Assembly: GCA_023898425.1 (NCBI GenBank)
Contig: CP060222.1
Coordinates: 720,001 to 752,000 of the forward strand
Direction of reading: 5' to 3'
Source of the DNA: Candidatus Saccharimonadota bacterium
GTDB taxonomy: Bacteria > Patescibacteriota > Patescibacteriia > 2-12-FULL-60-25
Length of the DNA: 32,000 nt
Each line of letters begins with the position of its first letter. Position 1 is the first letter of the stretch. Positions 3,134 to 21,958 of the stretch are shown here, in pieces. Below the pieces are notes generated by a model. The model was not told the DNA's origin. It was given only the letters and a program-made list of their open reading frames with translations, and did not search any database. A program made the translations under genes and the position numbers.

Positions 3134-3135
3134 AG

Positions 3136-5028: not shown

Positions 5029-5037
5029 AGGGTTAGT

Positions 5038-5298: not shown

Positions 5299-5312
5299 AA
5301 TTTAGTACGAAA

Positions 5313-5341: not shown

Positions 5342-5371
5342 GGGTAATGAATAACTTGACCAGGTCGATAA

Positions 5372-6409
5372 ATGCGCTATCTTTCGCCTATGTCTACGCC
5401 ACTTTTTGACTTTGATTATCACCTTCCTGTTGACCGTATTGCTCAAGAGTCGCTTGCAGACCGTGAGTCAGCAAAGCTACTCCTATTAGCTCGTGAAGAT
5501 GGCGCCATCATAGATCGTCATATTCGTGATCTGCCAGATCTGTTAGCACCAGGAGATCTATTGATTTTTAATGACAGCAAAGTCTTTAAGGCGCGCCTAG
5601 AAGGACGTCTCGACGACGGTACGCAAGCAGAGTGTTTTCTCCTCCATCCGACGGAGCACGGCTATTGGGAAGCCCTTATCAAGCCAGGTAAAAAACTCGC
5701 TCCTGGATCAACAATCTATTTTTCCTCTGACACAAAGTGCGTATTGCAAGAAAAAACCAACCAAGGTACCGCCATAGTTGATTTTGGCTTAACAACTGAT
5801 GAAGTATTCGCATTTTCTGATAAAGCAGGTTCGGTGCCAGTCCCGCCCTATGTTGAAAAAAATGCACGTAACCAGAGCGAGTACCAAACCATCTATGCCA
5901 AAGAACGCGGTTCAGTGGCAGCACCTACAGCAGGATTTCATTTTACTGAAAATCTCTTTAACAAACTTGAACAAAAAGGCGTTCAAAAAGCCTTTGTCAC
6001 TCTTCATGTAGGACTCGGTACATTTAGACCCATCAAAACAGAAACACTTGAAACGCATGACATGCACAGAGAGTGGGGCCATGTTCCTCAAGAAACGATT
6101 GATCAAATCTATAAAACAAAGAAACGCGGTAATCGCGTCATTGCTGTTGGTACTACGGCGACACGCGCTCTTGAGTCGTGGGGCGGCGTAGGAGAAGCTT
6201 GGGCTGATTCAACCGATCTCTTTATTACTCCGGGCTATTCGTTTCGAGTAATTGACGGATTGCTAACGAATTTTCATTTACCAAAATCTACGCTCATCGT
6301 ACTTGTTTCTGCCTTTGCAGGACGTAAGTCCGTATTAAATGCCTATAAACACGCCATTGATAATAAGTATCGTTTTTATAGCTTTGGTGATGCGATGCTT
6401 ATCCTTTAG
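5372..6409 (+). CDS. queA: S-adenosylmethionine:tRNA ribosyltransferase-isomerase (queuosine biosynthesis)
   Basis: 345-aa ORF with QueA hallmarks: N-terminal FDFDYHLP..RIAQ, GSVAAPTAGFHFT, HVGLGTFRPI, AVGTTATRALES, TNFHLPKSTLIVLVSAF and YRFYSFGDAMLI. The second ATG at 5390 (MSTPLFDFDY) fits typical QueA N-termini better, so the start is uncertain. Confidence 0.93.
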   Translation: MRYLSPMSTPLFDFDYHLPVDRIAQESLADRESAKLLLLAREDGAIIDRHIRDLPDLLAPGDLLIFNDSKVFKARLEGRLDDGTQAECFLLHPTEHGYWEALIKPGKKLAPGSTIYFSSDTKCVLQEKTNQGTAIVDFGLTTDEVFAFSDKAGSVPVPPYVEKNARNQSEYQTIYAKERGSVAAPTAGFHFTENLFNKLEQKGVQKAFVTLHVGLGTFRPIKTETLETHDMHREWGHVPQETIDQIYKTKKRGNRVIAVGTTATRALESWGGVGEAWADSTDLFITPGYSFRVIDGLLTNFHLPKSTLIVLVSAFAGRKSVLNAYKHAIDNKYRFYSFGDAMLIL

Positions 6410-7541
6410 GCTTTACAAGCAGCAACCCATCCTCAGGAGGGACGCTTACTTCGTTTAGAATTTCTCCCGTATTGATTTGCGGATCTTGTCGTCCAAAAAG
6501 TTTTTGATATCTCGTTGGCAATTGTATGGTGATCGCTTTTTTTGTTGGGTTTACAATAACGTAACCATTTGTAAATTGACGTGACCAAAGTCCCGAACTG
6601 TTTTTAGGCGCTGAATTTGGTACACCAATCGGTGCTTCGTATTCGTCATACCACCAGGTGCGATGATGTTTTGCATCTCCCGCATCAAACGAATAGTAGC
6701 CACCCGCTATGAGCGTTGAAGCTAATCCATAACGCATCAAACGATAATCATTTGGACGCTCTAGATTATTTGTATTGGTATTGATCGCTAATACGTTTGG
6801 CTGCTCTAATAGCGGAGATATATCTTGCATTGAACGAAAGGGCCAATCAAACCCATAACGTGGAAAATTTTCAAATAAAATACCGTTCGTTTCTTGCGCA
6901 AATTCTAATGAACTATTGGCAATAATAATCCGATCATCTCCTATGGCTTTGCGGGTATTTTGTAAAAGCGTTTTCATCCCATCACGATAAGCCTCATCAA
7001 CGGTTTTAGGGTCATCAACTATACCATCATTATTTATATCTAATCCTGCACCAAACTTAGATGTGACCTCACTATACCCGCCATCTAAAAAGACACCGTC
7101 CCAAATACCCTTAGACATGAGTTCTTGATGAATATATCTCGGTAAAAACGTATTCCAACGCTCGCCATTTATCAGCGGTGCACCATTTGTTGCGTTCATG
7201 AGCCATGCGCCTGGCCACCAACTAATCCTGCTTTGGCTTGGACGACCCAAGAACCATTGTTCCGGAATTTGATCTGCAAGATTTCTACCCGGCGAACCTA
7301 AGCTGCCATGAAAACGCGCTTCACTAATCTCACCAGCACTAATATAAGCGATAAGCTTTATGTCTGGATTTAACCGTTTTATCAACTTCATCTGCTCAGG
7401 AAATTGATACGTCTGATCCATGTCTAATACGACAATATCCCAACGCGATAACATGGTGGCTGTCTCATCCGTAAGTTCATACCCTAAGAAAAAATTTATG
7501 AGTGGCGGTGTCTCAATATCATCCGTTGAAGCAACCGCCAT
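6399..7541 (-). CDS. Putative glycoside hydrolase-like TIM-barrel protein (GH114 / GHL-type, exopolysaccharide hydrolase-like)
   Basis: 380-aa ORF with motifs I associate with GH114-like TIM barrels: WDIVVLDMD, LIAYISAGEI, WWPGAWLMN and WDGVFLDGGY. The family call is from memory of motifs, not a search. No signal peptide in this frame (see 7496..7615). Confidence 0.5.
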   Translation of the reverse strand: MAVASTDDIETPPLINFFLGYELTDETATMLSRWDIVVLDMDQTYQFPEQMKLIKRLNPDIKLIAYISAGEISEARFHGSLGSPGRNLADQIPEQWFLGRPSQSRISWWPGAWLMNATNGAPLINGERWNTFLPRYIHQELMSKGIWDGVFLDGGYSEVTSKFGAGLDINNDGIVDDPKTVDEAYRDGMKTLLQNTRKAIGDDRIIIANSSLEFAQETNGILFENFPRYGFDWPFRSMQDISPLLEQPNVLAINTNTNNLERPNDYRLMRYGLASTLIAGGYYSFDAGDAKHHRTWWYDEYEAPIGVPNSAPKNSSGLWSRQFTNGYVIVNPTKKAITIQLPTRYQKLFGRQDPQINTGEILNEVSVPPEDGLLLVKPKG

Positions 7542-7615
7542 TTGTGGTAATTACAAAGACAAGCGAGCAAAGCAATAATGCTCGTTCTGATACTATTTTG
7601 CACCCGCTTCTTCAT
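7496..7615 (-). other. Out-of-frame 39-codon mini-ORF encoding a signal-peptide/lipobox-like sequence immediately upstream of the GH-like gene
   Basis: My minus-strand translation from ATG 7615..7613: MKKRVQNSIRTSIIALLACLCNYHKWRLLQRMILRHRHS*. It has a basic n-region, a hydrophobic core and LLAC. Its frame differs from the 380-aa ORF; one extra A in the AAA run at 7541..7543 would fuse them (..CNYHK-MAVASTDD..). Confidence 0.4.
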
Positions 7616-8816
7616 AGCAACTTAATACCTGAAGCGTGTGAGCGTGCCAATCATGGCGTGCGGCAACCTTTTCTCGACCCGACTGACCCATTGCATCGCG
7701 TACTTCGGTTGGTGTAGCCAAAAAACGATGCAGAGTGCGTGTCCAATCTTCTACGGATCCAGGCGTCACAAGAAATCCTTGCTTACCGTCCTCGATAAGT
7801 TCTGGGTTACCTCCCGTACGCGTGACAAGACAAGGTAATCCACTAGCCATCGCCTCAAGTATTGAACCGCTGCAATTTTCATAACTTAACGTTGGTAGAA
7901 CAAGTGCTTCGGCGCGATGACGTAATTCTCTAAGCGTTACTGGATCAACAAACCCCAAAAATTCGATATGTGATGCACCGTGTTTTTCGACAATAGCACG
8001 GAGTTTTGCCTCATCTGGACCACTCCCAGCGAGCTTTACAGGTAGACTTGGAAAAAGACAGGCTGCTTCGAGAAAAGATTCGAGACCTTTCTCTTCGGAT
8101 AAACGTCCAGCATAAATCAAATAACCTCCGCCACGCACTGCGGCTACTTCGACACGATCCGTTGGATTTCTCACCAAGCGCATTTTACTCGCGGGCTCAC
8201 CCCAATCAATCATTTTTTCTTTCATGAATTGCGAAGGACAAAGAAAGAGAGCGATCGTTCGTTCATATGACTGCACCGTTTTTGTCATATACATCTCTAC
8301 GGCAGCCAATACATTACGAATCGTCGAGTCCGATAAACACTTGTACTTTACCACTTCATAATATCGACCACCCTTACTGTGTTCACAGATCGTTCCGTGG
8401 GCAAACATACTATAATTTGGAGAAGCGAGCTTATAATCGTGTAGCGTTTGTACGCATGGGATCTTTCGTTTACGAATCTCTGCTAATACTGATGTCGAAA
8501 GATGATGATAGATATTATGGATATGAATAATGTCTGGCTTTACTTCATCGAGCATTTTACCTAGAGCTTTTTTTGCCTCTACGTTCCAGATAAAATTTGC
8601 CGCAATTTTTGCTTGCGTATATAAATCCGTCTTTTTTTTAAGATCGTAACGCTTTACAAAGAACCTTTCATCTTTAGATGGAAGATTTTTGATGCTGTGG
8701 GTAGAAAAAGCGTGTACTTCATGACCTAATGCCTCTTGATACCGCATCAGTCCATGCATATAGACCTCAGCCCCTCCTTGGAAATCAAAAAATTTATTTA
8801 CGTGCAATATCTTCAT
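7593..8816 (-). CDS. Glycosyltransferase family 4 (GT-B fold)
   Basis: 407-aa ORF. MKILHVNKFF..GGAEVY N-terminus, GRLSEEKG, and the E..FG/EAMASGLPCLVTRTGG C-terminal GT4 motif. ATGA overlap with the upstream GT4 gene. Confidence 0.85.
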   Translation of the reverse strand: MKILHVNKFFDFQGGAEVYMHGLMRYQEALGHEVHAFSTHSIKNLPSKDERFFVKRYDLKKKTDLYTQAKIAANFIWNVEAKKALGKMLDEVKPDIIHIHNIYHHLSTSVLAEIRKRKIPCVQTLHDYKLASPNYSMFAHGTICEHSKGGRYYEVVKYKCLSDSTIRNVLAAVEMYMTKTVQSYERTIALFLCPSQFMKEKMIDWGEPASKMRLVRNPTDRVEVAAVRGGGYLIYAGRLSEEKGLESFLEAACLFPSLPVKLAGSGPDEAKLRAIVEKHGASHIEFLGFVDPVTLRELRHRAEALVLPTLSYENCSGSILEAMASGLPCLVTRTGGNPELIEDGKQGFLVTPGSVEDWTRTLHRFLATPTEVRDAMGQSGREKVAARHDWHAHTLQVLSCYEEAGAK

Positions 8817-9871
8817 AGGGAGGCGTAAAGCGTATCATACAAGCGAACAACCACCTGAATACCAAAACGATCGCGTACAATGTTTGCGGCTAAATCAGCC
8901 CTTATTAAGGCGTCGGTATATTGAGTAAGTGTTTGATGTATTGCTTTACTCAAAGCATCAACATCGCTCACTGGTATAAGCAACATCGATCTACGATCAA
9001 AGACTTCGCGAATTGCAGGTAAGTCGGTAGCGATAGCAGGTAAGCGTGATGCCGCCGCTTCGAGAAGCGCCATCCCCTGACCTTCGTGTAACGAAGGCAT
9101 GCAAAAAAGATCAGATGTTGTCAGATAATAGGAAGGGTCATTTACTGACCCTGCCCAGTGAATACGTTGTGCAATACCAAGACGTTCGCTCTCACGTTGT
9201 AATGTTAAGCGCAATGGTCCATCGCCAACAATGGTTAATGCCCAAGGACGATGTAAGAGCGCTAATGCCTCGAGAAGCACTCGATGACCTTTTTCTGGAG
9301 CGAGCCTACCAACAATAACGAGCTTTGGAATATCACCCGCTTGATGTCTCTCGCGTAAGGCAAAACGCTGAAGATCTAATCCAACAGGAATGACTGTTAC
9401 TTTTTTTTCTAAAACACCATAACGCCAAGTCACCATATCTTTAACAGAACGTGAGACAGCCGCGATATGCCCAGCAGAGCGATAGGCCAAAAAGCGTAAT
9501 ATTCTTGTGATGATGCTTAGTTCTGGTTCATGACTATGAGCTGTCATCACCCACTTAATACCAAGCGGTTTTGCCGCAAAGTAACCCGCCCATACATCTG
9601 CACCTAAATGCGTATGCACGATATCGGGCTGACATTCTCGATATAGTTCTTTGCATTGTTCGATGATACGAAAACGCTCTTTTAGTGTATGCGGTTGTTT
9701 ACCTAATACTTTTAAGTCTATTTCTGCATCTAAAAATAATTGCTCCATTTCTCCACCGCATACCGCGATTACACGTACATCGTGTGATCGTTGCTGAGCT
9801 TGTGCCAAATCCAAAACAAAACGCTCAGCACCGCCTCTACCTAATGACCAAACGACATGGATAATACGCAT
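8813..9871 (-). CDS. Glycosyltransferase family 4 (GT-B fold)
   Basis: 352-aa ORF. MRIIHVVWSLGRGGAERF, GRLAPEKG and PSLHEGQGMALLEAAASRLPAIATD. Confidence 0.85.
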   Translation of the reverse strand: MRIIHVVWSLGRGGAERFVLDLAQAQQRSHDVRVIAVCGGEMEQLFLDAEIDLKVLGKQPHTLKERFRIIEQCKELYRECQPDIVHTHLGADVWAGYFAAKPLGIKWVMTAHSHEPELSIITRILRFLAYRSAGHIAAVSRSVKDMVTWRYGVLEKKVTVIPVGLDLQRFALRERHQAGDIPKLVIVGRLAPEKGHRVLLEALALLHRPWALTIVGDGPLRLTLQRESERLGIAQRIHWAGSVNDPSYYLTTSDLFCMPSLHEGQGMALLEAAASRLPAIATDLPAIREVFDRRSMLLIPVSDVDALSKAIHQTLTQYTDALIRADLAANIVRDRFGIQVVVRLYDTLYASL

Positions 9872-9875
9872 ACTC

Positions 9876-11324
9876 TTATTTTAATAGAGTTTCTTTTAAG
9901 AAATCTGGATCTTTTGCTTTTTCGCTACTTACAAAAACTCTCGAAGCAGCTAATACCAAACCAACCGGCAACCATAAACGCGGCGTCCAATAGGTCGTGC
10001 TAAAACATTCAAACAGAAACATGCTTGCCACAAGGATACAAAGATACATATAAGCCTCACGTTCATCACTACTCGTGGAAAGCGCTTTATTATTTTTCCA
10101 CATTGTATGCCCAAGTGCATACAGCAATATACCTAGCGCCAGTAAGCCAATACCGCCTAATTCGCCTGCGACTTTCTGTATGATGCCATGCGCATCAAAG
10201 GCAGGACCAAATTCAACAAAAAAAGCACGTGAATTACCGACAAGTTGCAAATAGCCTCCCGCTCCAACACCGAATACAGGCGAATCCTTAAAAGCATTAA
10301 AGCCAATTGCAGCAATCATATTACGAGAACTTACTGAACTCATTGCCCCGCTTGATAGAGTATAAACAACCATCGCTATAGCAATAGGTGACAAAAGAAT
10401 ACCAGCACCGATAATAGATGATCGATAGTGTTGCCACCAAGGACGCCAAACGGTCGCACAAAGACAGACAAAGGCAAAAGCAAGCACGATCCACGCTGTT
10501 CGACTAAAGGTAAACAAGGTAACAATAAACATTAAAACAACACCTGCTTTTATCCATTTTTTTTGTTCTTCTGATTTTGATAATGCCCCTAAAGCAAGCA
10601 AAGCGCCCATGCCAATAATTAATGTCTCTGCCAAAGCATGCTGATTACCACCGAGTGCATTTACACCAAGTATAGGTAATGGCATAGCGCGACCAAGCTG
10701 AAGAACGCCATTTGAATACACCATAGAGATAAGTCCACCGATAGCAAATAAAGCACCACTCATACCAAGTGAACCCAGTATTGGCTTAAGACGTTTTTTT
10801 GATCGAACAAAATTTGCCACCAAAACGATACAGCTGAGATAGATAAAACCAATATATCGTATAGCATGTTTTACAACTTCGATTTTACTAGGAAGTGCAG
10901 GCGAAAACATTGATACTAGCTCAGCAAGAAACAATAGCGAGAATGGTAGGAGTATCGGAAACCAAGGCTTCCAATTGAGATCACGTCTCCCCTTCCAGTA
11001 GAATAAAAGTCTGAGCGCCCATGCTGCCAACAATGAAAGCGCTAATAACTCACCAACGCTTATTTCTGCGTAAACATGTAACACTTGTTCGCCAATGCGA
11101 TATTCTCCCGTATCTAAACTCACCACCCAACCAATCATGAGTGAGATTGGAGCCCAAGCAAATAAGACCAGGTAAGGCTCACGCCAAGCGAGCAAGGTAC
11201 AAGCCAATAGAGATGCCAGAAAAGCAAGCGCAAGAGGCGTTCCAATAATAAAGCCTAAAAGGAAAAGCGCTACAAATAGCCCTAGACCTAGGGCGATACG
11301 TGTAGACAAAGAACGACTGAACAT
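9876..11324 (-). CDS. O-antigen ligase/polymerase-like (Wzy_C-type) polytopic membrane protein
   Basis: 482-aa ORF, hydrophobic throughout with at least 10 predicted TM segments by eye. Central FTFSRTAW segment followed by a loop, typical of Wzy_C/O-antigen-ligase-like proteins. Embedded among GT genes. Confidence 0.65.
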   Translation of the reverse strand: MFSRSLSTRIALGLGLFVALFLLGFIIGTPLALAFLASLLACTLLAWREPYLVLFAWAPISLMIGWVVSLDTGEYRIGEQVLHVYAEISVGELLALSLLAAWALRLLFYWKGRRDLNWKPWFPILLPFSLLFLAELVSMFSPALPSKIEVVKHAIRYIGFIYLSCIVLVANFVRSKKRLKPILGSLGMSGALFAIGGLISMVYSNGVLQLGRAMPLPILGVNALGGNQHALAETLIIGMGALLALGALSKSEEQKKWIKAGVVLMFIVTLFTFSRTAWIVLAFAFVCLCATVWRPWWQHYRSSIIGAGILLSPIAIAMVVYTLSSGAMSSVSSRNMIAAIGFNAFKDSPVFGVGAGGYLQLVGNSRAFFVEFGPAFDAHGIIQKVAGELGGIGLLALGILLYALGHTMWKNNKALSTSSDEREAYMYLCILVASMFLFECFSTTYWTPRLWLPVGLVLAASRVFVSSEKAKDPDFLKETLLK

Positions 11325-11370
11325 TAAGCAAAGTATACCATAGAGAAGTCGTTCATGATACGCTTTTTCT

Positions 11371-11943
11371 ATGCAAACAAGCCCCTATCACCTCCTACCA
11401 AAAGTATTAGACATCATCGATTGCCTACAACCGAAACGTATTTTAGATATTGGTTGCGGCGATGGTTTTGTTGGGCTTGCTATCCATCGTTATATCGACC
11501 AATCTATCCGATTAGATGGAATTGATAAAACAGCTACGAAGTCACCCTTATTATCAAGCGACTATCAGCTTTTTACAAAAATAGATTTTCGCTCTCTAGA
11601 GGCTAAGGATCTCCCGCACTATGATCTCGTTCTCTTGCTTGAGACACTTCAATCAGTCAATAAACGCGAAGGCAAAAAACTCTTAACGCAACTCCTTCAA
11701 CAAAATAATAGCTTGCTTATTAGTGTTGATCGAAGCCAGTGGGACAAAGGGGATTTTGCTGAGCTGAGTAATGCGTTATTTCTATTTGATAGTGAACGCA
11801 CCCTCGTTTTTTTAACAAAAGACCCTGAAAAAATAAAACAATTAAGAAAAAATAGAATTACCTCAAAATTATTACGCGGTATTGGTAGTTCAAAAACAGC
11901 TACTCGTATTATAAAACGTGTTACCAAAACAAAATCAAAGTAA
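11371..11943 (+). CDS. Class I SAM-dependent methyltransferase
   Basis: 190-aa ORF with SAM-binding motif I ILDIGCGDGFVG, followed by an acidic residue after beta2 (LDGID). Lys-rich C-terminal tail. Confidence 0.65.
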   Translation: MQTSPYHLLPKVLDIIDCLQPKRILDIGCGDGFVGLAIHRYIDQSIRLDGIDKTATKSPLLSSDYQLFTKIDFRSLEAKDLPHYDLVLLLETLQSVNKREGKKLLTQLLQQNNSLLISVDRSQWDKGDFAELSNALFLFDSERTLVFLTKDPEKIKQLRKNRITSKLLRGIGSSKTATRIIKRVTKTKSK

Positions 11944-11954
11944 GATACGAAAAA

Positions 11955-11981
11955 GCCCCTCTTGAAGTTCAAGAAGGGCTC
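11955..11981. terminator. Bidirectional rho-independent terminator between convergent genes
   Basis: AGCCCCTCTTGAA-G-TTCAAGAAGGGCT, a 13-nt inverted repeat with one mismatch. It is preceded by AAAAA (a TTTTT tail for the minus-strand transcript) and followed by CATTTCAGTTT on the plus strand. Confidence 0.6.
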
Positions 11982-12023
11982 ATTTCAGTTTGCGCTAGAA
12001 GCGCTCAAGGACACCGCGCTTGA

Positions 12024-14939
12024 TCAGAGCGCGCCGTTGCGGCAGACACCCGAAGATGTCGTACCCGTGATCGGCGAACCATTGCCAGCGGTGATCGACG
12101 CGTAGTCGCTATACCCGGAGGTAGAGGCGACACACGTACCACCGTAGTTATGCGCCATGTGGACGATGTAGACCGTCCCGTTGACGTTGACGCAACTGCG
12201 GATCGTCCAAGGAACACCCGTAGGCACTCCAGAGCACGAAACCACGGTATTGCCACCGCTCACAGCACACGAAGAGCCGGGCACCACACTCAGAGTGGTC
12301 GCATCGACGACCGTGGGCTGTGCCGTACACGGAACACCGTTGGTGTCGCTGCCCGTGAGGACAAAGACACGCGTGGCATTGCTCGTATTGAGCGTTGCAC
12401 TGACCGTGGTCGTCCCAGAAGGACAACCCTCGTTCACCACACCGCTGCAGTTGTTGTCGAGCAAGTCACCGCAGACCTCAGTTGCACCGGGATTGACCGA
12501 TGCATTGGAGGGACTGCAGTCGTTGTTGTTCGACACCTGACCAGACGGACAAACCGCGCCCGAGACGACGTTGACCGCGCCTGCACCGTAACCATCGTTG
12601 TCGGTGTCGGCGTAGCAATTGGTCGTCACGCAGCCTTCGTTCACCAGGGCATCGCAGTCGTTGTCGACCTGATCACCGCAGAGCTCAGCCGCGTTGGGGT
12701 GGGTGGTCGGCGCTGCATCGTTGCAGTCGCCATTGGCCGACGAGGTACCCGCGGGACACATGGCTGCGCTGTACACGAAGCCCGCTCCCACACCGTAGCC
12801 ATCTGCGTCAGCGTCCGTGTAGCACGTGACACTCACACAAGACAGGTTCTCGTTGACCATGCCGTCGCAGTCGTTGTCGATCATGTCGCAGACCTCCAAC
12901 TGGAGGGGGTTCTGTGACGCATTGGCGTCGTTGCAGTCCGAGTTGTTCGTCACGCGACCAGCGGGGCAGGAACCGTAGACCTGGAGGGCCGTACCGGTAC
13001 CGAAGCCGTCGTTGTCGGCGTCGACGAAGCAACTCGTGATGATGCAGCCATCATCCACGATCGTATTGCAGTTCTGATCGATGGCATCGCCACAGACCTC
13101 GACCGCATTGGGGTGGATGGTATTGACGTTGTTGTTGCAGTCACCTGCAACCGTCACCTGTCCTGCGGGGCACGCCAGAGCCGCGAGGCTATTGGGTGCA
13201 CCGGCGCCATAGCCATCACCATCGGTGTCGGCGTAGCACGTGATCACCTCGCACGAGAGACCGTCGTCGATCGTGAGATCGCAGTCGTCGTCGATGAGAT
13301 TGCACATCTCAATTGCGCCGGGGTGAATTGTGTCGTCACCGTCGTCGCAGTCGTCGTCGAGACCAACCTGACCATCGGGACAGACCGCGGGAGCCGCAGC
13401 CGTACCATTGATCGGGTTTGCCACACCAGCGCCGTGACCATCACCGTCCGCGTCGACGTAGCAGAACACCATATTGCAGGTGAGTCCGTCGTCGGCCACG
13501 AGCGTGCAGTCGTCGTCGATCGTATTGCAGATCTCTATGGCACCGGGGAAGACCGCAGAAGAAGCGTCGTTGCAGTCACCGAAGATCGCCGAAGTACCCG
13601 AGGGGCACTGCGTCGTATTCGGCATGACCATACCGACACCGCTACCGAAGCCGTCCATGTCACCATCCGTGTAGCAGGTCGTCGCCATGCAAACGAGCAT
13701 GTCGTCGATCGTACCGTCACAGTTGTCGTCGAAGCCGTTGCAGATCTCGGTGGCACCGGGATGGATCTGGTCGTTCGCGTCGTTGCACTCACCGCCGAGC
13801 TTTACCTCGCCAGCAAGACACGTCGTACCGATACGAACCACGCCCACACCCGTACCGAACCCGTCACCATCGGCGTCAGGGAAGCAGCGGACAGACTCGC
13901 AGGTGTTGCCACCATCGATCATTCCGTCGCAGTTGTCGTCGATGAGGTTGCAGATCTCGGTGGCACCAGGGTGCACAGCGGGATCGTTGGGAGCGCAGTC
14001 GTTGGGGACCGCGGACTCACCAGCGTTACAGCTGGTACCAAGGCGGGTCACGGGCAAGCCGTAACCGAAGCCATCGTCGTCGACATCCTCGTAGCAGTCG
14101 ATCGACTCGCAGCTCAGACCTTCGTTGATCTGACCGTCGCAGTCGTTGTCGATGCCCGTGGGCAAGTCACAGATCTCGGGGGCACCCGGAAAGGTGCTCG
14201 AGACCGTATCATCGCAGTCGCCAGGGACCGTCGCCATACCAGCGCCGCAAGCGGCACCGTTATTGGCGAGGACACCGTCACCCGTTCCGAACCCGTCACC
14301 ATCCGCATCGACGTAGCACGTCTGCTGAGAGCAGATGAGCGCGCCGCTTGGGGTGCTGTCGGGCGTACCGTCGCAGTCGTCGTCGAGACCGTTGCAGGTC
14401 TCGGCTTGCGGGGCCAGCGGGGTCGCGTTGCAGAACAACGTGGCCGTAGGCTTGTCGCAAGTGAAGGTGCCCGCTTGGGTACATTCACCGACTCCGTTGG
14501 TACAGGGCTCACCCATCACGCCGACGTTCGAGACGACACACCCAAGGGGGATGTCGGTTTGCACGCAGATCGTGTAGACACCCGGCGACAGCTGATACTG
14601 CCAGCCAAGGGGGCCACCGGGGCCACCGATCGTGCAGAAGCGACCATCGGTGGAGTTCACGCCGCCATCGGGATTCGACGGGACGGGAGCCACGCAGGTG
14701 CACTCGGTCCACGTGTTGTTGGCCGGGTCGCAGTACTGCGTCGCCTGGGGGCTGTAGCCCGGAGGGCAAGTGTTGGGGCAATAGTTGATGTCGCCCGGCT
14801 GATTGCCGGTCGAATCACAGGTGCCGGTGAGGGCAGCATGCGAATCCGAGGCATCGAACGGGCTGGCACAGCCAGCCTGAACGAGGACGAGCCCCAAGGT
14901 TGCCATCATGGCGACCTTGAGAAGGTTGAAATTTCTCAT
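12024..14939 (-). CDS. Secreted lipoprotein, Cys/Asp-rich, nine tandem MopE-like putative metal/calcium-binding modules; GC-rich compositional outlier
   Basis: 971-aa ORF. N-terminus MRNFNLLKVAMMATLGLVLVQAG|C is a lipoprotein signal with Cys24. Strong SD (AAGGAGAG) ends 3 nt before the ATG. Nine repeats of C[YF]xDxDxDG[FYH]GxG...C..G......DC.D......P.A.E.C......D..C. About 60% GC against low-40s in flanking genes (hand counts of single 60-nt lines: 37/60, 30/60 and 40/60 inside; 25/60 in a flanking gene). Confidence 0.9.
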   Translation of the reverse strand: MRNFNLLKVAMMATLGLVLVQAGCASPFDASDSHAALTGTCDSTGNQPGDINYCPNTCPPGYSPQATQYCDPANNTWTECTCVAPVPSNPDGGVNSTDGRFCTIGGPGGPLGWQYQLSPGVYTICVQTDIPLGCVVSNVGVMGEPCTNGVGECTQAGTFTCDKPTATLFCNATPLAPQAETCNGLDDDCDGTPDSTPSGALICSQQTCYVDADGDGFGTGDGVLANNGAACGAGMATVPGDCDDTVSSTFPGAPEICDLPTGIDNDCDGQINEGLSCESIDCYEDVDDDGFGYGLPVTRLGTSCNAGESAVPNDCAPNDPAVHPGATEICNLIDDNCDGMIDGGNTCESVRCFPDADGDGFGTGVGVVRIGTTCLAGEVKLGGECNDANDQIHPGATEICNGFDDNCDGTIDDMLVCMATTCYTDGDMDGFGSGVGMVMPNTTQCPSGTSAIFGDCNDASSAVFPGAIEICNTIDDDCTLVADDGLTCNMVFCYVDADGDGHGAGVANPINGTAAAPAVCPDGQVGLDDDCDDGDDTIHPGAIEMCNLIDDDCDLTIDDGLSCEVITCYADTDGDGYGAGAPNSLAALACPAGQVTVAGDCNNNVNTIHPNAVEVCGDAIDQNCNTIVDDGCIITSCFVDADNDGFGTGTALQVYGSCPAGRVTNNSDCNDANASQNPLQLEVCDMIDNDCDGMVNENLSCVSVTCYTDADADGYGVGAGFVYSAAMCPAGTSSANGDCNDAAPTTHPNAAELCGDQVDNDCDALVNEGCVTTNCYADTDNDGYGAGAVNVVSGAVCPSGQVSNNNDCSPSNASVNPGATEVCGDLLDNNCSGVVNEGCPSGTTTVSATLNTSNATRVFVLTGSDTNGVPCTAQPTVVDATTLSVVPGSSCAVSGGNTVVSCSGVPTGVPWTIRSCVNVNGTVYIVHMAHNYGGTCVASTSGYSDYASITAGNGSPITGTTSSGVCRNGAL
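12423..14318 (-). repeat. Nine tandem coding repeats of ~195-225 nt (65-75 aa modules, aa 208-839 of the lipoprotein)
   Basis: Module boundaries on the minus strand: 14318-14097, 14096-13887, 13886-13677, 13676-13464, 13463-13239, 13238-13032, 13031-12825, 12824-12618 and 12617-12423. Each starts with a Cys codon followed by Y/F-x-D-x-D-x-D-G. Six Cys per module. Modules are diverged; I estimate about half identical at protein level for similar pairs. Confidence 0.85.
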
Positions 14940-15050
14940 TTTCTCTCCTTGCGTATTTGATTACCCGGCACGCATCCGGGGTAGATAACTGATTGTAGGG
15001 TCCAATTAATGCAGCCGGGTTCTTATCCCAGAGATACATCAAGCTCAGCT

Positions 15051-15079
15051 TAACTATCATATTTATAAATAAATGTCAA
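15051..15079 (-). promoter_or_regulatory. Candidate sigma70-type promoter for the GC-rich lipoprotein gene
   Basis: On the minus strand: TTGACA (plus 15074..15079), a 17-nt AT-rich spacer ending in TGA, then TAGTTA (plus 15051..15056). It sits in a ~22% GC intergenic region and would give a ~100-nt 5' UTR. Pattern match only. Confidence 0.4.
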
Positions 15080-15215
15080 TCGTCTATAGGACAAAAATAT
15101 CCTTATTCATATAATTCTGACTCTTTGAAAGACGTATTTGTAAAATAATGGCTAATATTAGCGCTATTTACTATTTAATGTAGAAAAATCCTGGGATAAT
15201 AGTTTTTCTATTCTG

Positions 15216-15977
15216 CTATCTTTTCGGTATCATTACTGCCTGTGACCAAACTAACTCAAAAACGGTTCTCATCATTTGTGTAAGAGCTGGCGAATAAATA
15301 ACGAGCACAGCGGGTTCTTTACCATGGGTAAAAAGATACGATTTTTGACCTGTGATCGCGAGTCCACCAGAAAAAGGAGCCTGATCAACATAACAAGCTC
15401 TTACATCGAATCTATTTGCATCAAAACTCGGTAAAGCACTCCCTCTTGGTGTCACAAGAACCGTACGACCATGTTGTAGACGCATTTGTCGATCGCGTTT
15501 ATCACTCGCGGCTTCGATAATTCGATGAAAATACTCATCAATAACAAACCATTCCAAAAGCGCATCTTGGCTCATGGCGATCTCATCACGTAAACGCAAG
15601 ATCTCGCTCATACCTTCGAAATACTGCACATGCGGCTTACCTTGACCGTCTTGAAAAGCAGCGAGCAATTCTTTCATCGAATCATTAAGGCGTTGCATGC
15701 GATATCGCATTGTCTCTAAATCTCCTGCGAGATTTTCTCTTAATCGTTCTGGAGAACGTGCGGTAAATACCGCTCTCCCTGCTTGCTCGCCTTCGATGAC
15801 AAGACCTTTTTCTATCAATGACTCTAAGGCTGGATAGGTAGCCGTGCGATTTACGTGACTTTTTTCTGCGATCTCTTGCACGGAACTTGTACCGAGTATT
15901 AACAACGTTAAATAAATATCACTTTCGCGCTGTGTAAAGCCGCAATCTTTGAGCAGCGGTCGAATATGATCAAACAT
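15216..15977 (-). CDS. TrmB-family transcriptional regulator (N-terminal winged HTH plus C-terminal effector-like domain)
   Basis: 253-aa ORF. N-terminus GFTQRESDIYLTLLILGTSSVQEIAEKSHVNRTATYPALESLIEKGLV matches the TrmB HTH pattern. Confidence 0.75.
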   Translation of the reverse strand: MFDHIRPLLKDCGFTQRESDIYLTLLILGTSSVQEIAEKSHVNRTATYPALESLIEKGLVIEGEQAGRAVFTARSPERLRENLAGDLETMRYRMQRLNDSMKELLAAFQDGQGKPHVQYFEGMSEILRLRDEIAMSQDALLEWFVIDEYFHRIIEAASDKRDRQMRLQHGRTVLVTPRGSALPSFDANRFDVRACYVDQAPFSGGLAITGQKSYLFTHGKEPAVLVIYSPALTQMMRTVFELVWSQAVMIPKR

Positions 15978-15980
15978 AAA

Positions 15981-17096
15981 TTACCAATTGGTCAGTAGTG
16001 GCAAAATAATCTCAGCTGTTTTCTTCCATGAAAACTGTTCTTCGCGCCTTTTTCCTTTCTCGCTTAATTGCTGACGTAACTCGGTAGAGCGTAATTGGTT
16101 CATTTGTTCTGCCAGTTGTTGTGCAAAAGCCGGATTAAAAAACAAAGCATTGCCCTCCCCTGCAATCTCTGGCATTGAACTTGTACTTGCAGCGATTACT
16201 GGTGTACCGCACTTCATAGCTTCAAGCACCGGTATACCAAATCCTTCATACCATGAAGGCTGAGCATAATATTCTGCAGCAGATAAAAGCGCCCCTTTAT
16301 CACTCTCTGCGAGATAACCGGTAAATAGAATATCGTCCACAAGACCGAGCTCTTGAATACGCTCACGCAAACGTTCAATACCAAATCCTTCACGACCCGC
16401 AAGAACAAGTTTTAAATCACGGTCATGTGTTTGTTGATAGTACAACGACAAAGCCTCAATCAATACACGAACATTTTTCTTTTCTTCGATGCGACCAATA
16501 AAAAGAACAAAACGTTGTGGTAATCCCATCTTTTGACGCAATAGATCTATCTGATCACTATTTGCTTCTTGCAAGGATTCTGAAACCGCGAGAGGCGCTA
16601 CTGTTATTTGTTCGGATTTCGCTCCGTAAAAATTAATGATTTCTTGTTTTGAAAATTCTGACACCGTTACAATTCGAGGACAACGACGCACAATATCACG
16701 CGTGGTCCACTCATGATAAAGACGTTGTTTTAACGGATAGAGTTCTGGATGACGTCGAAAACCAACATCATGAATTGTGACGACATTTTTCTTTGGCGCG
16801 ATAAGTGGCAATACATGCGCTGGTACAAATAAAACATCGGTAGGATTGCGCCACATCTCCCAAGACAAACGTAATTGCGTCCAAAGATACTTTGGTGGCC
16901 ATAATAATCGCACTTCACTCCAATGTTTTGGCAAAGTGGCCAGAGCACCCGTCAATGAATCATTTGTTAACAGCGACCAAGAATCATTACTACTTGCTGT
17001 TAGCTTTTTTAATTCTTCGATCACATTTAACGCATACCACTCTACGCCGGTTTTTTGTACACGATTTGCGCGTGACGCTTCGATGCCGATTTTCAT
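15981..17096 (-). CDS. Glycosyltransferase family 4 (mannosyltransferase-like)
   Basis: 371-aa [11 protein letters not shown] and [33 protein letters not shown]4 motifs. Confidence 0.85.
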
Positions 17097-17123
17097 AACC
17101 GTAGGATAGCAAAATCTCTTCGG

Positions 17124-18128
17124 TTAGGAAGAGAAGACGCTACGTTTATAGAGATCGAGATTTTCGAGTGCGATGCCTGTGCCTTTTGCCACGCATTGCT
17201 GTGGGTTATCAGCCATAAAGGCAGGAACGCCGGTTGCTTCTGAAAAAAGACGATCTAAATTTCGTAATTGTGACGAACCTCCAGAGAGGACCATACCCTT
17301 TTGCATCACATCTGCCGAAAGCTCAGGAGGCGTGTTGCGTAAAACGTCTTTGATGGCATCAACGATTCCAGCGAGCTCATGTTGAATCGCGTCCGTTACA
17401 TCATCAGAGGTCACGGTGATGACACGCGGCAAACCATTGATCATATCGCGACCCTTTACTTCGAGCTCTAGTTTTTCTTCGAGATAGAGTGCTGAACCGA
17501 TACGGATTTTAATTTCTTCTGATGTACGCTCACCAATAGCGAGACCGTATTTACGACGAACATGTTCTTGAATAGCACCATCCAATTTATTGCCACCAAT
17601 ACGAACAGAAGAAGAAGCCACAATGCCACCCAAAGAAATAACAGCGATCTCAGAAGTGCCGCCGCCGATATCAATAATCATGTGTCCAGATGCTGAGCCA
17701 ATTGGAATATCAGCACCAATAGCAGCAACAACAGGTTCTTTGATAATGTAAGCCGCTCTAGCACCAGCACTAATCGTGGCATCGATAACCGCACGACGTT
17801 CGGTAGAAGTGATACCACCCGGAACAGCAACCATTACCTCTGGACGAAACAAACGCACGCCTCCGAGCGCCTTATTAATAAAGTAACGTAGCATCGCCTC
17901 CGTGGTGCGGTAGTCAGCGATAACACCGTCTTTAAGTGGACGTTTTGCCACGATGGTGTCTGGAGTACGGCCAATCATGTCTTTTGCTTCTTTGCCTACG
18001 GCGAGTACTTTTTTATCTGCTAACGAAATCGCAACAACTGAAGGTTCGTTAATAATGATCCCTTTTTTTGGGATGTAGACGAGTACGGTCGTGGTGCCTA
18101 GATCGATACCAATTTTTTTTCCGAACAT
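17124..18128 (-). CDS. mreB: Rod shape-determining actin homologue MreB
   Basis: 334-aa ORF. IGIDLGTTTVLVY phosphate-1 motif, MIIDIGGGTSEIAVISLGGIV, and GMVLSGGSSQLRNLDRL. Confidence 0.93.
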   Translation of the reverse strand: MFGKKIGIDLGTTTVLVYIPKKGIIINEPSVVAISLADKKVLAVGKEAKDMIGRTPDTIVAKRPLKDGVIADYRTTEAMLRYFINKALGGVRLFRPEVMVAVPGGITSTERRAVIDATISAGARAAYIIKEPVVAAIGADIPIGSASGHMIIDIGGGTSEIAVISLGGIVASSSVRIGGNKLDGAIQEHVRRKYGLAIGERTSEEIKIRIGSALYLEEKLELEVKGRDMINGLPRVITVTSDDVTDAIQHELAGIVDAIKDVLRNTPPELSADVMQKGMVLSGGSSQLRNLDRLFSEATGVPAFMADNPQQCVAKGTGIALENLDLYKRSVFSS

Positions 18129-18130
18129 AG

Positions 18131-20107
18131 CTAGAAGGTAATATGAAAATCACGAGTCAGATCCCAAAACTTGGTATAACGGTAGTAGAGATCTCCCCAC
18201 TCCACGCGGTCTTCAGGAGGAACCGCGTCTTTAATGTTCTTACCGAATGAGAGATCTAGCGTCAATTCACGCTTAGCTCCTGGTTGTTTTTGGGCCAAAA
18301 GCACATATTCACCCTTTTGTACCTGAGACAAGATACGTGGCGGTAATTTATAGGTAAATGAGATTGTATTACGAGATGCGAGATCAACGGACCAGTGACA
18401 GCCAAAAACCTGCTTACCTAATTCTTTATACACATCCGGTCGACAGCCGGTTGCGGTAATAAATTCTGAACCCTCAGGCACATAGACCCTGGTATAACTA
18501 CGATACCTTGTATAACGCCAATCCGCGGTTTGTGCATTATTTCGATATTGAAGTTTTGTTGTTGCTATAAGATCACCGTTAGCATCTTCGTTAATACTAT
18601 AGAGCACTTCTTTATCAACAACACCATCCGTTTTTTGCGCATTAATATTTGCATCAACAACCCAGAGATAGTCGTTATCTGTTGCAAGCGTTCTCCCCGC
18701 CCAGCCACGTCGATCAAGCACCTCTTGTGTGGACTTATCTTTTACAGCAACGATCATATCTCCCTGATTAAGCGACTGAGTCACCACAGTTAACAGTGTA
18801 GGCCAAGAAGATGCCGGCAAGGTCATAAGACGCTGAATAAGCGCATCCCCTACTTGTTTTACGATCTCTTTGCGTTGTGCGACGGGCTTACCTTCAAATA
18901 AAAAGCCTTGGTCAACATCAAATTGCAACTTATCAAAAAAGTTTGCCTCATCAAATACACGACCCTCAACGGTGATAGGACCCGTTAAACGCAAGAAGCC
19001 CTTAAAAATTTCTGGTGTTAAGAAAATAACACCGTCAACATGAACATTTTTATTTCGACCTAAGGCATTTTCGCGAACATAAAAGTCCATAATTGTTGCC
19101 GCAGAAGAAGGCGCATCAGGGGACCAGTTTGCATCACGTAGATAGAAAACTTTGTTTAAAAATTGTCCTGCTAGACCGATTGGTTGTGGCTCGTTCCATT
19201 TGCCATCAACAGATTGATCGAGAGCGTACACATCCTCGAATTCAAAAGATTCAAGATGACCCGCATCAACCGTAACAACGCCAATATTTCCGATAAAGCC
19301 ACCTGTTGGACGTAACTCGTCACTATTTTGCAATAAAACTAGATAGGTTTTTTGTTCTGGAACGCCGGATAGCGGTACGAGCCACTCAAGAACATCAACA
19401 GCATTTTTTAATGCTGTATCAGCTTCGGCCAGCCGATTTGCATAAGGAGCGATGACTTCTCGCACTGGTAATAACAATTCTTCTTGTGGGATTTGTGACC
19501 ATGTATTTGAAGCAATAGCAATACGTTCTCGCGCTAAACGTAATTTTGGCAATAACTCGTAGAGCTTTGCCATAATCGCCTTTCGCTCATCACTTGTAAG
19601 ATCTTGATACGAACGATTACTACCAATCACTTGCCCAGGGAGCGCGGCTTCGTTTAATGCCTCATTTATCTCTCGAGCCACTTGAACAAGTTCGCGTGCT
19701 CCGGCGATAGCGGATCCGCCTACACGACTAACAGACTCAAGCGACTGAATACGAGTACCGATCCAAGGTGCATAGCGCCAAGCGCCAAAGGCCTTAAAAC
19801 CTTTTTGCACATCCGCCAAACCAGCTTCGGCAATAAGAAGATCTTCGTCAGCACCGGCAAAATCAAGACTCGCGACGCGCTCTGGTAAACGCTTTAGTGC
19901 ACTCCTAGCCGTAAGCGCACCAGTACTAGCAAGTGCCGAACCATAAAGAACAGGTAAAATAAACACCACAACAAGAAGCGTTACGAAAAGTGCAACGGGC
20001 CATCCCATGCCTTTAAGCCATGACGGCCACTTTGTCGGTTTTTTATTTAACGAAGCATCTGTATGCGATGTTACTTCGTGTAGTAGATTTGGAGACTCAT
20101 GCGACAT
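18131..20107 (-). CDS. DUF4012 domain-containing membrane-anchored protein
   Basis: 658-aa ORF. N-terminal TM WPVALFVTLLVVVFILPVLY. The LLQNSDELRPTGGFIGNIG motif is the one I recall as the DUF4012 hallmark. Stop is 2 nt before the mreB start. Confidence 0.7.
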   Translation of the reverse strand: MSHESPNLLHEVTSHTDASLNKKPTKWPSWLKGMGWPVALFVTLLVVVFILPVLYGSALASTGALTARSALKRLPERVASLDFAGADEDLLIAEAGLADVQKGFKAFGAWRYAPWIGTRIQSLESVSRVGGSAIAGARELVQVAREINEALNEAALPGQVIGSNRSYQDLTSDERKAIMAKLYELLPKLRLARERIAIASNTWSQIPQEELLLPVREVIAPYANRLAEADTALKNAVDVLEWLVPLSGVPEQKTYLVLLQNSDELRPTGGFIGNIGVVTVDAGHLESFEFEDVYALDQSVDGKWNEPQPIGLAGQFLNKVFYLRDANWSPDAPSSAATIMDFYVRENALGRNKNVHVDGVIFLTPEIFKGFLRLTGPITVEGRVFDEANFFDKLQFDVDQGFLFEGKPVAQRKEIVKQVGDALIQRLMTLPASSWPTLLTVVTQSLNQGDMIVAVKDKSTQEVLDRRGWAGRTLATDNDYLWVVDANINAQKTDGVVDKEVLYSINEDANGDLIATTKLQYRNNAQTADWRYTRYRSYTRVYVPEGSEFITATGCRPDVYKELGKQVFGCHWSVDLASRNTISFTYKLPPRILSQVQKGEYVLLAQKQPGAKRELTLDLSFGKNIKDAVPPEDRVEWGDLYYRYTKFWDLTRDFHITF

Positions 20108-20112
20108 ATCCC

Positions 20113-20943
20113 CTATGATACACGGGGATGCCGTTTGCCGCGATGTTTTGCAAAATAATAGAGAGCGCTTTTGATATGCTCACGCGCAATGCGATTTGTA
20201 ATAATGTCTAATGGCGTACGCAAACGACTCTCGCGTTTATGATAATGAACGATTCTTGCATGCGGGTAATAGGTAACCTTGTGACCCGCCTCCCAAGCTC
20301 GGCGGCACAAGTCGGTGTCTTCAAAGTACATAAAGAATCTGTCATCAAAACCCTTTAGAGCCTCGAGAATCGGCCGACGGATGAGCATGGCGGAACCCAT
20401 AATCCAATCAACATCTTGTATTTGCTCGCGATTCATCGTTTTTAAAAGATAACGATCAAGGGTTCGCTTTGCCCATGGTAATGCCCCTAAAATGGTACGA
20501 CGATACACGGGCACCATAATAGAAGGAAATGCATAACAGTTATCCTGATCTGATCCGTCTGGGTTTGTTGTTCGTGGACCTGAGATGGCAACTTCTTCGG
20601 ATTCATCCATCCACTGGACCCAACGCTCTAACTCCCCAGAGAAAAGAAGGACATCTGGATTTACTAAGGCAATATACTGACCCGTCGCTTGCTCTAATGC
20701 AAGGTTATTACCTCGACCAAAACCTACATTGCCACCAGCGGATAGATACGTCACCCATGGGTACTTTGTTTCGATCATCTCCTGAAGGCCATCGCCACCG
20801 TCACAATCAACGACAATATACTCATAATCAAAAGCAAGCGCTGCATCTTGAACGCTTTGCAATAAATGTCTAATGAGATGTGCCGAACGATAGTTTACCG
20901 TGACAAAACTCACCTTTGGTCGAGTGATCGACATGCCGCACAT
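20113..20943 (-). CDS. Glycosyltransferase family 2 (rhamnosyltransferase-like, soluble)
   Basis: 276-aa ORF. VSFVTVNYRS, VVDCDGGDG, GGNVGFGRGNN, VNPDV and FMYFEDTDLCRR, typical of GT2/WbbL-like enzymes. An alternative start lies at the M of MSITRP. Confidence 0.85.
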   Translation of the reverse strand: MCGMSITRPKVSFVTVNYRSAHLIRHLLQSVQDAALAFDYEYIVVDCDGGDGLQEMIETKYPWVTYLSAGGNVGFGRGNNLALEQATGQYIALVNPDVLLFSGELERWVQWMDESEEVAISGPRTTNPDGSDQDNCYAFPSIMVPVYRRTILGALPWAKRTLDRYLLKTMNREQIQDVDWIMGSAMLIRRPILEALKGFDDRFFMYFEDTDLCRRAWEAGHKVTYYPHARIVHYHKRESRLRTPLDIITNRIAREHIKSALYYFAKHRGKRHPRVS

Positions 20944-20946
20944 GTA

Positions 20947-21957: not shown

Positions 21958-21958
21958 A

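Follow-up and report, generated by a model that had tools for sequence, protein, structure and literature searches.

In MopE, a β-rich domain carries a Cu site that consists, in MopE*, of two His and a Trp-derived kynurenine (PMC3423442), together with a separate structural Ca2+ site (PMC3423442; PMC3912023). The linear motif Dx[DN]xDG binds Ca2+ in a nearly identical manner in at least 12 structural contexts (PMC3123361), and thrombospondin (TSP) type 3-like domains are composed of tandem, disulfide-stapled, Asp-rich repeats that are nearly devoid of secondary structure and fold around Ca2+ (PMC3123361; PMC9058538). The C-rich domain of teneurins, whose 1.5-Å structure contains three Ca2+, eight acidic residues, and sites resembling both TSP type 3 and low-density lipoprotein receptor class A (LDLR-A) repeats (PMC9058538), was linked earlier by Tucker et al. 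to the Pfam family PF11617 (PMC3278476). The subject of this study is a complete gene at 12024..14939 on the reverse strand (stop codon at 12024-12026) of a 32,000-nucleotide stretch of a Candidatus Saccharimonadota genome (assembly GCA_023898425.1, contig CP060222.1, positions 720,001 to 752,000), hereafter the window. According to the list of open reading frames (ORFs) and the PF11617 match, it encodes a probable surface lipoprotein of 971 amino acids (aa), in which nine tandem modules each join a DxDxDG loop to a PF11617 motif. The array was noticed in an original prediction made from the letters of the sequence and without database searches. Its author was aware of no described function for such arrays, and none was found in a full-text search of the literature on PF11617 and MopE-related arrays, in which the teneurin work was the sole relevant source.

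In a reading that has an evenly balanced chance of being correct, the gene product is a secreted, probably lipid-anchored protein, the Ca2+/disulfide-stabilized array of which acts as a surface spacer for the C-terminal domain. Such a protein would run from a signal peptide with Cys24 through a Cys-rich N-domain and nine MopE-type modules to a small all-β C-terminal domain. Each module would be compact, with little secondary structure, and would be held by two to three Ca2+ and three disulfides. The array would have no catalytic or transport role and would form a stiff, highly acidic spacer, the copy number of its modules setting the distance of the C-terminal domain from the membrane; this domain, presumably the distal head, would be the specific binding part. 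The gene itself would have entered the ancestor of a small clade of Patescibacteria horizontally from a GC-rich lineage. Module anatomy, family membership, orthology with synteny, the differing array lengths on a shared C-terminal domain, and the anomalous composition are observed directly, whereas Ca2+ binding, the disulfide map, rigidity, exposure at the surface, and a binding role of the C-terminal domain are inferences.

Module Array and the PF11617 Family

The array occupies aa 208-839, which is exactly 12423..14318, and comprises nine modules. The pattern C[YF]xDxDxDG[FYH]GxG matches the protein exactly nine times (at aa 208, 282, 352, 422, 493, 568, 637, 706, and 775), and the DxDxDG starts of the nine units are 69-75 aa apart. 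Aligned with MAFFT, the modules are 65-75 aa long, have six Cys each, and share 37-56% pairwise identity, so that the nine tandem six-Cys modules of the original prediction, and the boundaries drawn between them, are upheld by self-alignment. Type A modules, which end on C[ND]xxDD[DN]C..x.[DN]..L.C, are module 1 (aa 208-281; 14097..14318) with a 3-residue insert in its Asp knot, module 2 (aa 282-351; 13887..14096), module 3 (aa 352-421; 13677..13886), module 4 (aa 422-492; 13464..13676), module 5 (aa 493-567; 13239..13463) with a 5-residue insert past the hairpin, and module 7 (aa 637-705; 12825..13031). Type B modules have the shorter ending CGDxxDxxCxxxV[DN][DE]GC and are module 6 (aa 568-636; 13032..13238; CGDAIDQNCNTIVDDGC), module 8 (aa 706-774; 12618..12824), which gives the best match to residues 12-44 of MopE*, and module 9 (aa 775-839; 12423..12617); all nine lie on the reverse strand. 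Both subtypes, with modules 6, 8, and 9 as type B, had been recognized correctly. The earlier consensus strings also hold overall, but several modules deviate slightly: the "C..G" element occurs as CGAG, CPSG, and CPDG as well, DC[ND]D is replaced by DCAP in module 2 and DCSP in module 9, module 3 carries ECND, NPLQLE stands in place of P.A.E. in module 7, and CDG becomes CTL in module 4 and CDL in module 5. No tandem repeat of about 210 bp is detectable at the DNA level across the gene, and therefore the duplication of the modules is old.

The whole protein matches PF11617 (Cu-binding_MopE, "putative metal-binding motif") in 10 stretches with 269.8 bits and E 6.7e-82. Since the gathering score of this 30-position hidden Markov model is 27 bits, the match is far beyond chance, and the earlier assignment of the second half of the module to the MopE motif is thereby confirmed. 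For single modules the scores are 43 and 33.3 bits, and the matched part is module positions 33-63. The tenth stretch is the partial motif ETCNGLDDDCDGTPD (aa 180-194; 14358..14402, reverse strand), which had already been noticed ahead of the array. In Pfam searches, PF11617 is the only family found at E ≤ 1 with the whole protein, and nothing besides it is found at E ≤ 10 with the isolated hairpin halves, the N-domain, or the C-terminal domain; TSP_3, TSP3_bac, EF-hand, FG-GAP, and Ldl_recept_a give no match at E ≤ 10. Of the Pfam families proposed earlier for checking, the putative metal-binding family thus matches and the TSP type 3-like family does not. NCBIfam yields, at E ≤ 1, only a spurious match to FlgL (E 0.056; 11.5 bits against a cut-off of 749).

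A homolog search returned more than 6,491 significant proteins among 8,000 candidates scored, from Myxococcota, Bacteroidota, Thermodesulfobacteriota, "Proteobacteria," and other groups. They cover the array only (about 68% of the query) at 33-44% identity. Among the 120 best of them, the spacing from one DxDxDG[FYHW]G to the next peaks sharply at 66-71 aa, and therefore the combination of DxDxDG and MopE motif is the standard unit of a very large family. When an array is defined by DxDxDG[FYHW]G hairpins 60-80 aa apart, each with a PF11617 motif and four canonical Cys, the 971-aa protein has nine such units with the four canonical Cys present. The regular array, which had appeared unusual, is hence an ordinary unit, annotated though uncharacterized, in more than 6,491 homologs. 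On sequence grounds, the module itself is not new and belongs to a large, known, uncharacterized repeat family. What is new here is a triple-disulfide variant of the module, the rare terminal domains on a stalk of variable length, the host in the candidate phyla radiation (CPR), and the anomalous codon composition. Elsewhere, arrays of this type are fused to adhesion-type domains, namely lectin_C, FG-GAP, HYR, SprB, and Por_Secre_tail.

An Additional Cysteine Pair

The canonical Cys columns of the module are Ca past the hairpin, Cb in DCxD, Cc in ExC, and Cd in DDDCDG. They were surveyed in 870 modules from 120 proteins, including the protein itself and its two full-length orthologs (P0001-3), outside which 851 of the modules lie. 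The four columns are 95-100% conserved over the 870 modules, and 795 of the 851 non-ortholog modules have exactly four Cys. The column that immediately precedes the hairpin, termed C1, is aromatic (W, Y, or F) in about 93% of the 870 modules; Cys takes this place in every scored module of P0001-3 and in 3 of the 851 others. A Cys at C1 is always paired with a sixth Cys (C6) past the Asp knot, and the two together are seen only in P0001-3, in relatives that share the C-terminal domain, and in one or two modules of another homolog (P0068). The six-Cys state is a rare feature of these modules, on which the original prediction had not remarked. Among rare variants that also have C6, column Ca is lost in 20 modules, and 26 modules carry a CxC where the hairpin ends.

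Because a hairpin brings the beginning of its first strand next to the end of its second, we infer that C6 reaches the hairpin base; the C1-C6 pair would then be an added intramodule staple. The Cys counts are even in every region (16 for the N-domain past Cys24, 54 for the array, and 6 for the C-terminal domain). Three disulfides per module are probable from this pattern, and the even parity agrees with self-contained modules.

Predicted Structure and Putative Metal Ligands

An AlphaFold2 model of modules 2-3 (aa 278-427), obtained with an alignment of 95 two-module windows, has a mean predicted local distance difference test score (pLDDT) of 92.9 and a predicted template modeling score (pTM) of 0.57. 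The module is modeled as a β-hairpin (strands at positions 2-7 and 16-23) with the DxDxDG loop at its tip, and the remainder is coil except for a one-turn helix past CDG. Invariant or near-invariant over the 95 windows are D8, D10, D12, G13, G15, D37, C38, D40, E51, C53, D57, C60, and D65. Because these positions are almost all Asp, Glu, Gly, or Cys, they form a pattern of metal and disulfide ligands and not a hydrophobic core, which reads as the signature of a fold organized by ions and disulfides. A Foldseek search of the PDB with this model gave nothing at E < 1 and did not recover 2vov; the best entry was acyloxyacyl hydrolase (AOAH) at E 2.5. The large subunit of AOAH (PDB 5w7a, 5w7c, 5w78; residues ~44-81) contains GYHWRGRDCNDSDESVYPG…DSNCNG, a segment that is weakly matched by Foldseek and also, marginally (E about 0.9), by a profile search of the PDB. 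This segment resembles an isolated PF11617-type motif within a mammalian enzyme.

The linear motif D-x-[DN]-x-D-G, which the original prediction had placed at the start of each module, is present in 9/9 modules and forms the hairpin-tip loop of the model. When the hairpin profile was compared with the PDB, the sole match was "FADSDGDGYGD" of SusG (E 0.068), and hhalign gave the type-B core an 88.9% probability against the teneurin C-rich core over 14 columns. Sequence searches of the PDB gave no teneurin match at E ≤ 10 and no TSP or LDLR match. The acidic motifs may thus be tied to Ca2+ through analogy at the level of motifs, not through demonstrated homology.

In sequence and profile searches of the PDB, the array does match residues 12-44 of MopE* (E 1.7e-4 to 2.8e-4). 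This match, at E about 2e-4, and the Pfam name Cu-binding_MopE itself would favor a metal-scavenging or copper-handling protein, and His is frequent in the [HFN]PGA element. The match is, however, limited to the 33-residue N-terminal motif: of the 336 residues of the 2vov chain, none but 12-44 align, and the Cu site of MopE* is taken here to lie outside them. The β-rich Cu domain of MopE has no match in the 971-aa protein, for which reason copper binding as in MopE was rejected. Compared with the two His and the Trp-derived kynurenine of the MopE* site, the whole protein contains no more than 3 Trp and 9 His, and the modules have H, F, or N at the His position. All 54 array Cys can pair as disulfides, and no copper or metal-transport gene is found near the gene. 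A role in copper handling or metal scavenging is thus very improbable.

Terminal Domains, Orthologs, and Array Length

The 971-aa protein is 100% identical to the GenBank entry P0001, which comes from a 1.03-Mb contig of a Candidatus Nomurabacteria metagenome-assembled genome (MAG) and is labeled "putative metal-binding motif-containing protein" by NCBI. Relatives that match over the full length are scarce, namely P0002 (75% identity), from a contig of 4.4 kb, and P0003 (55% identity), from "Patescibacteria group bacterium STL-PAT1." The modules of the three correspond one to one in order, those of type B being numbers 6, 8, and 9 in each, and therefore the two-subtype architecture has been kept by descent and not homogenized. 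Its recurrence, suggested earlier as a point to check, is evident at both levels, since A and B knots both occur in the family and the 6/8/9 order is found in all three orthologs. In the P0002 cluster, two genes on JGI contigs of 19 and 48 kb (P0136 and P0137) are called as a 296-aa product that breaks off within the module-2 DxDxDG loop (…CYEDVDMTGSASACP), a shortening that could reflect a genuine pseudogene, a frameshift, or an error in sequencing.

At the N-terminus, alignment of the orthologs delimits a signal peptide (aa 1-24; 14868..14939, reverse strand; MRNFNLLKVAMMATLGLVLVQAG-C) with n- and h-regions that ends on Gly23-Cys24, and G23 and C24 are invariant in P0001-3. A lipoprotein was defined by a signal peptide ending in the lipobox [LVI][ASTVI][GAS]-C. 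Of the features expected for the lipid anchor proposed earlier, the signal peptide and an invariant Gly-Cys are present, whereas the lipobox is non-canonical (VQAGC); position -3 is W in P0002 and L in P0003. N-terminal lipidation of the protein is probable from these features. The signal peptide, the invariant Gly-Cys, and the canonical lipoboxes of relatives described below together argue for a location at the cell surface. An AGGAG resembling a Shine-Dalgarno sequence can be read directly 5 nt 5′ of the ATG (14945..14949, reverse strand), and an intrinsic-terminator-like hairpin with a 13-bp stem and a T-run lies 43 nt past the stop (11953..11981, reverse strand).

The two terminal domains, which the original prediction had missed, are the lineage-specific parts of the protein. 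The Cys-rich N-domain (aa 25-207; 14319..14867, reverse strand) has 16 Cys, is highly conserved in the orthologs, and holds an EGF-like C..G.G.C unit besides the partial MopE motif. It shares 33% identity with the N-terminus of the 681-aa relative P0122 (E 4e-11). A word-indexed search with aa 25-180 (156 aa) returned no match, not even the protein itself, and is hence uninformative, negatives of this method being unreliable on Cys/Gly/Pro-rich sequence. The C-terminal domain (aa 840-971; 12027..12422, reverse strand), with 6 Cys, is all-β in an AlphaFold2 model from an 8-sequence alignment (pLDDT 76.5), for which Foldseek found only generic immunoglobulin-like folds at E > 0.2.

Against 1.84 billion representative proteins, a profile of the C-terminal domain gave only six matches, and scans for its loci in GTDB genomes and JGI metagenomes recovered only contigs that were already known. 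Of the six, P0121 (333 aa) has a signal or anchor, 2-3 six-Cys modules, and the C-terminal domain, and P0122 has both terminal domains, about two hairpin modules, and EGF-like/MopE units. P0123, P0125, and P0126 are lipoproteins of 197-240 aa that have no array, a short acidic linker leading from their canonical LTGC lipobox to the C-terminal domain, and P0124 is a weak match with SprB-like repeats. One family of C-terminal domains is thus found with 9 (P0001-3), 2-3 (P0121, P0122), or 0 modules (P0123, P0125, P0126), from which it is argued that the array is a stalk of variable length. This series of stalk lengths on one head domain is the strongest comparative support for the role as a spacer.

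The gene for P0121, a paralog in the same MAG as P0003 (GCA_046350895.1), lies at 8001..9002 of its locus (L004), and a transposase-like gene with a G+C content at third codon positions (GC3) of 0.90 is found 4 kb away. P0126 is encoded in a four-gene GC-rich block (4623..10274 of locus L005; JGI 3300056624, contig Ga0558117_01302; GC 0.62-0.65 versus about 0.50 in the flanks), together with a 499-aa PF11617 lipoprotein and two unannotated secreted proteins. The same arrangement recurs in a second locus (L006), and the block may be a mobile surface-protein cassette.

The main rival of the spacer reading makes the array the working part, a multivalent Ca2+-dependent adhesin for host-cell or matrix polysaccharides or mineral surfaces, to which the terminal domains would be accessory. 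The array contains 111 Asp and Glu versus 5 Lys and Arg, in line with the extreme acidity claimed earlier, and its net charge of about -106, to which each module contributes roughly 10 conserved acidic residues, would suit an adhesin. So would the fusion of arrays in other phyla to many adhesion-type domains, and the identity of each module is kept across three diverged orthologs, which fits a position-specific function better than a pure spacer. However, the residues conserved in the family are presumably structural ligands and the exposed positions between them are highly variable, the C-terminal domain is kept where the array is short or absent, and Foldseek found no lectin-like or other known binding fold. 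An adhesive array therefore stands as a tentative possibility.

Base Composition and Origin of the Gene

A GC island at 11990-15000, also missed in the original prediction, coincides with the gene and has sharp borders (0.61 GC versus 0.42). Neither its interior nor its flanks contain a tRNA, an Rfam element, or a DNA-level tandem repeat. Two antisense ORFs over the gene, of 615 aa at 13113..14960 and of 255 aa at 12150..12917 (forward strand), have no support from a Pfam family and are best read as by-products of high GC. GC3 of the gene is 0.74 versus 0.30-0.42 in the 19 other ORFs of the window, its neighbors being at about 0.33; third positions are A in 4% versus 29% and C in 51% versus 17%. 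The orthologs have the same excess, with 0.82 versus 0.49 at the locus of P0002 (L001) and 0.91 versus 0.54-0.65 at that of P0003 (L002). A further locus in an Uhrbacteria genome (L003) is uninformative about composition, because that host is already at 60% GC.

Such a sharp step in composition, exactly at the borders of the gene, might be taken for an assembly chimera or a contaminant. However, the independent assembly L002 carries the gene between TrmB and a converging methyltransferase, followed by Wzy_C, and the 4.4-kb contig L001 has the same converging gene of 190 aa downstream. The borders lie in intergenic DNA with a host-like AT-rich promoter region, a ribosome-binding site, and a terminator; moreover, the synonymous divergence of the gene matches that of its neighbors and the orthologs repeat the GC3 excess. 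An artifact of this kind is hardly credible.

Between the window and L002, third bases at conserved four-fold sites of the gene are identical in a fraction of 0.48, with 0.35 expected from composition, and those of syntenic neighbors in 0.21-0.44, with 0.24-0.27 expected, while the proteins of the neighbors are 73-98% identical. The synonymous divergence of the gene is near-saturated and equal to that of its neighbors. MreB (17124..18128, reverse strand; L002 5439..6443) is 98% identical as protein, with the same base at 35% of conserved four-fold sites, and its four-fold-site GC moves from 0.36 to 0.67 between the two genomes, showing how far base composition has diverged.

Several explanations of the GC3 excess were rejected. 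Amino-acid composition does not account for it, since arrays in low-GC Bacteroidota have a GC3 of 0.26-0.28, equal to that of their neighbors. Nor does a high-expression bias of the host: the genes for ribosomal proteins L10 and L7/L12 have a GC3 of 0.41-0.45 and prefer GAA, GCT, and GTT, whereas the gene prefers GAG (0.88), GCC/GCG, and GTC/GTG. Repeat-driven conversion alone is at odds with the GC3 of the non-repeat N- and C-terminal domains (0.79 and 0.69), and recent transfer with a synonymous divergence equal to that of the neighbors. The simplest and most likely history is that an ancestor of the clade acquired the gene from a GC-rich donor.

The codon usage also bears on another explanation, in which the protein is an abundant polyanion that buffers Ca2+ or Mg2+ or nucleates mineral, as a cation reservoir or envelope charge layer with no specific partner. 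Besides the extreme acidity and a near lack of Lys and Arg (3 and 9, respectively, in the whole protein, as against 77 Cys), the strong avoidance of A-ending codons and the preference for C-ending NNY codons could indicate the high expression that such a layer would require. The gene also favors GAG, CAG, and GCG, however, which the ribosomal protein genes of the host do not; conserved, rare terminal domains argue for a specific role, and the rarity of the family makes a general envelope component unlikely. A mere charge layer is accordingly quite improbable.

In a bolder version of the spacer proposal, the array is a Ca2+-gated "molecular ruler" of 0, 2-3, or 9 triple-disulfide modules with a rare β-sandwich head, and its GC-rich sequence is actively maintained. 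In a small clade of ultra-small Patescibacteria, a horizontally acquired MopE-type array would then set the reach of the head towards a host cell or matrix, and the GC-rich, A3-depleted sequence would be maintained by selection on mRNA or DNA or by biased conversion, instead of being a fading trace. This version is rather improbable.

Gene Neighborhood

The gene belongs to a conserved cluster in the order TrmB, gene, converging methyltransferase, Wzy_C, GT4, GT4, and GHL15, MreB and DUF4012 being encoded close by, and L002 is syntenic with the window in this order. Like the signal peptide, this setting among envelope genes speaks for the reading as a surface protein. The TrmB-family regulator is directly upstream of the gene. 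Cell-envelope genes extend over 5372..23452 and include three GT4, one GT2, a weaker GT2-like gene, a Wzy_C-like polymerase or ligase, GHL15, DUF4012, and MreB. Farther away, a MacB/HlyD-type ABC exporter is encoded at 1188..5028. The ribosomal L7/L12 and L10 region (27175..28271 and 29281..29652, reverse strand), which served as the control for codon usage, is followed by a gene for a membrane protein of the PF04020 "phage holin 4_2" family.

Assessment and Significance

Several points weigh against the spacer reading. The pTM of 0.57 means that the orientation between modules, and hence a rod shape, is not established. The likenesses to SusG and teneurin are short motifs below database-wide significance, and the Asp at position 9 of the motif (DGDG[FY]G-D), present in many canonical modules and in SusG, is absent from the CPR modules. 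The lipobox is non-canonical, with Q at -3. A variable array length would also be expected of an adhesin with ligand-binding repeats, and the C-terminal domain, having no informative structural match, is a binding head only by assumption. As to origin, a simple ancient horizontal transfer leaves unaccounted for a GC3 excess that has survived near-saturated synonymous divergence.

PF11617 arrays are among the commoner uncharacterized extracellular repeats in bacteria, more than 6,491 proteins being matched by this query alone, and yet Pfam models 30 of the ~70 module residues and the module has neither a solved structure nor an assigned function. The locus is a compact and well-bounded example, with nine non-identical modules, confident AlphaFold2 models, and a natural series of stalk lengths, and these properties make the idea of a Ca2+-stabilized spacer testable. 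For CPR biology, a candidate surface or attachment protein is nominated. The usual picture of amelioration after horizontal transfer is challenged by a gene whose GC3 still exceeds that of its surroundings by about 0.4 although its synonymous divergence is near saturation.

Comparison with Known Systems

The Dx[DN]xDG systems compared here are EF-hand-like loops, integrin-type β-hairpin loops, and the GH13 "DxDGDGxGD" loop of SusG. With these and with TSP type 3 repeats, the 971-aa protein shares the DxDxDG motif, in 9/9 modules and at a hairpin tip; TSP type 3 repeats differ from it in module length and Cys framework. The type-B knot aligns with the core C-x-D-x-x-D-N-D-x-D-x-x-x-D of the teneurin C-rich domain (residues 834-871 of human Ten4), which is an extracellular domain with six Cys and eight acidic residues. 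It is, however, a single domain of a eukaryotic receptor without the DxDxDG hairpin half, and its Cys framework is different, with Gly for Cd and a CC pair; its own disulfides join Cys 1-3, 2-5, and 4-6.

The myxobacterial receptor TraA, which we take to carry a variable head on a Cys-rich repeat stalk between a membrane or sorting signal and a recognition domain, follows an architectural logic similar to that of the 971-aa protein. TraA has a C-terminal MYXO-CTERM anchor versus the N-terminal lipid predicted here, a different head, and a different repeat family, presumably the Myxococcus cysteine-rich repeat TIGR02232. NCBIfam, whose curated set includes TIGR02232, gave no meaningful match to the protein.

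MopE*/CorA (PDB 2VOV, 2VOW, 2VOX) contains one DCND....HPGA.E...D.NCDG motif, at MopE* residues 12-44. MopE and CorA are secreted or surface proteins of methanotrophs, and the 971-aa protein is likewise predicted to be secreted or exposed; the single motif of MopE stands against an array here. The closest systems are the MopE-related arrays of other phyla. They share the bipartite unit of a [WYF]YxDxDGDG[YF]G hairpin, Ca, DCxD, PGAxExC, and xxDDDCDGxxDE, as well as the four canonical Cys, the acidity, and 33-44% identity over the array, and both type-A (CNGxDDDCDG) and type-B (CGDxxDNDCDG) knots occur in them. In contrast to these arrays, the 971-aa protein has a third Cys pair (C1 before the hairpin and C6), with Cys replacing the usual aromatic W/Y/F at C1, lacks the Asp following DGxG, and has nine modules compared with 10-20 in the best homologs; it also carries lineage-specific N- and C-terminal domains and belongs to a CPR host, the GC3 of its gene being far above that of the host.

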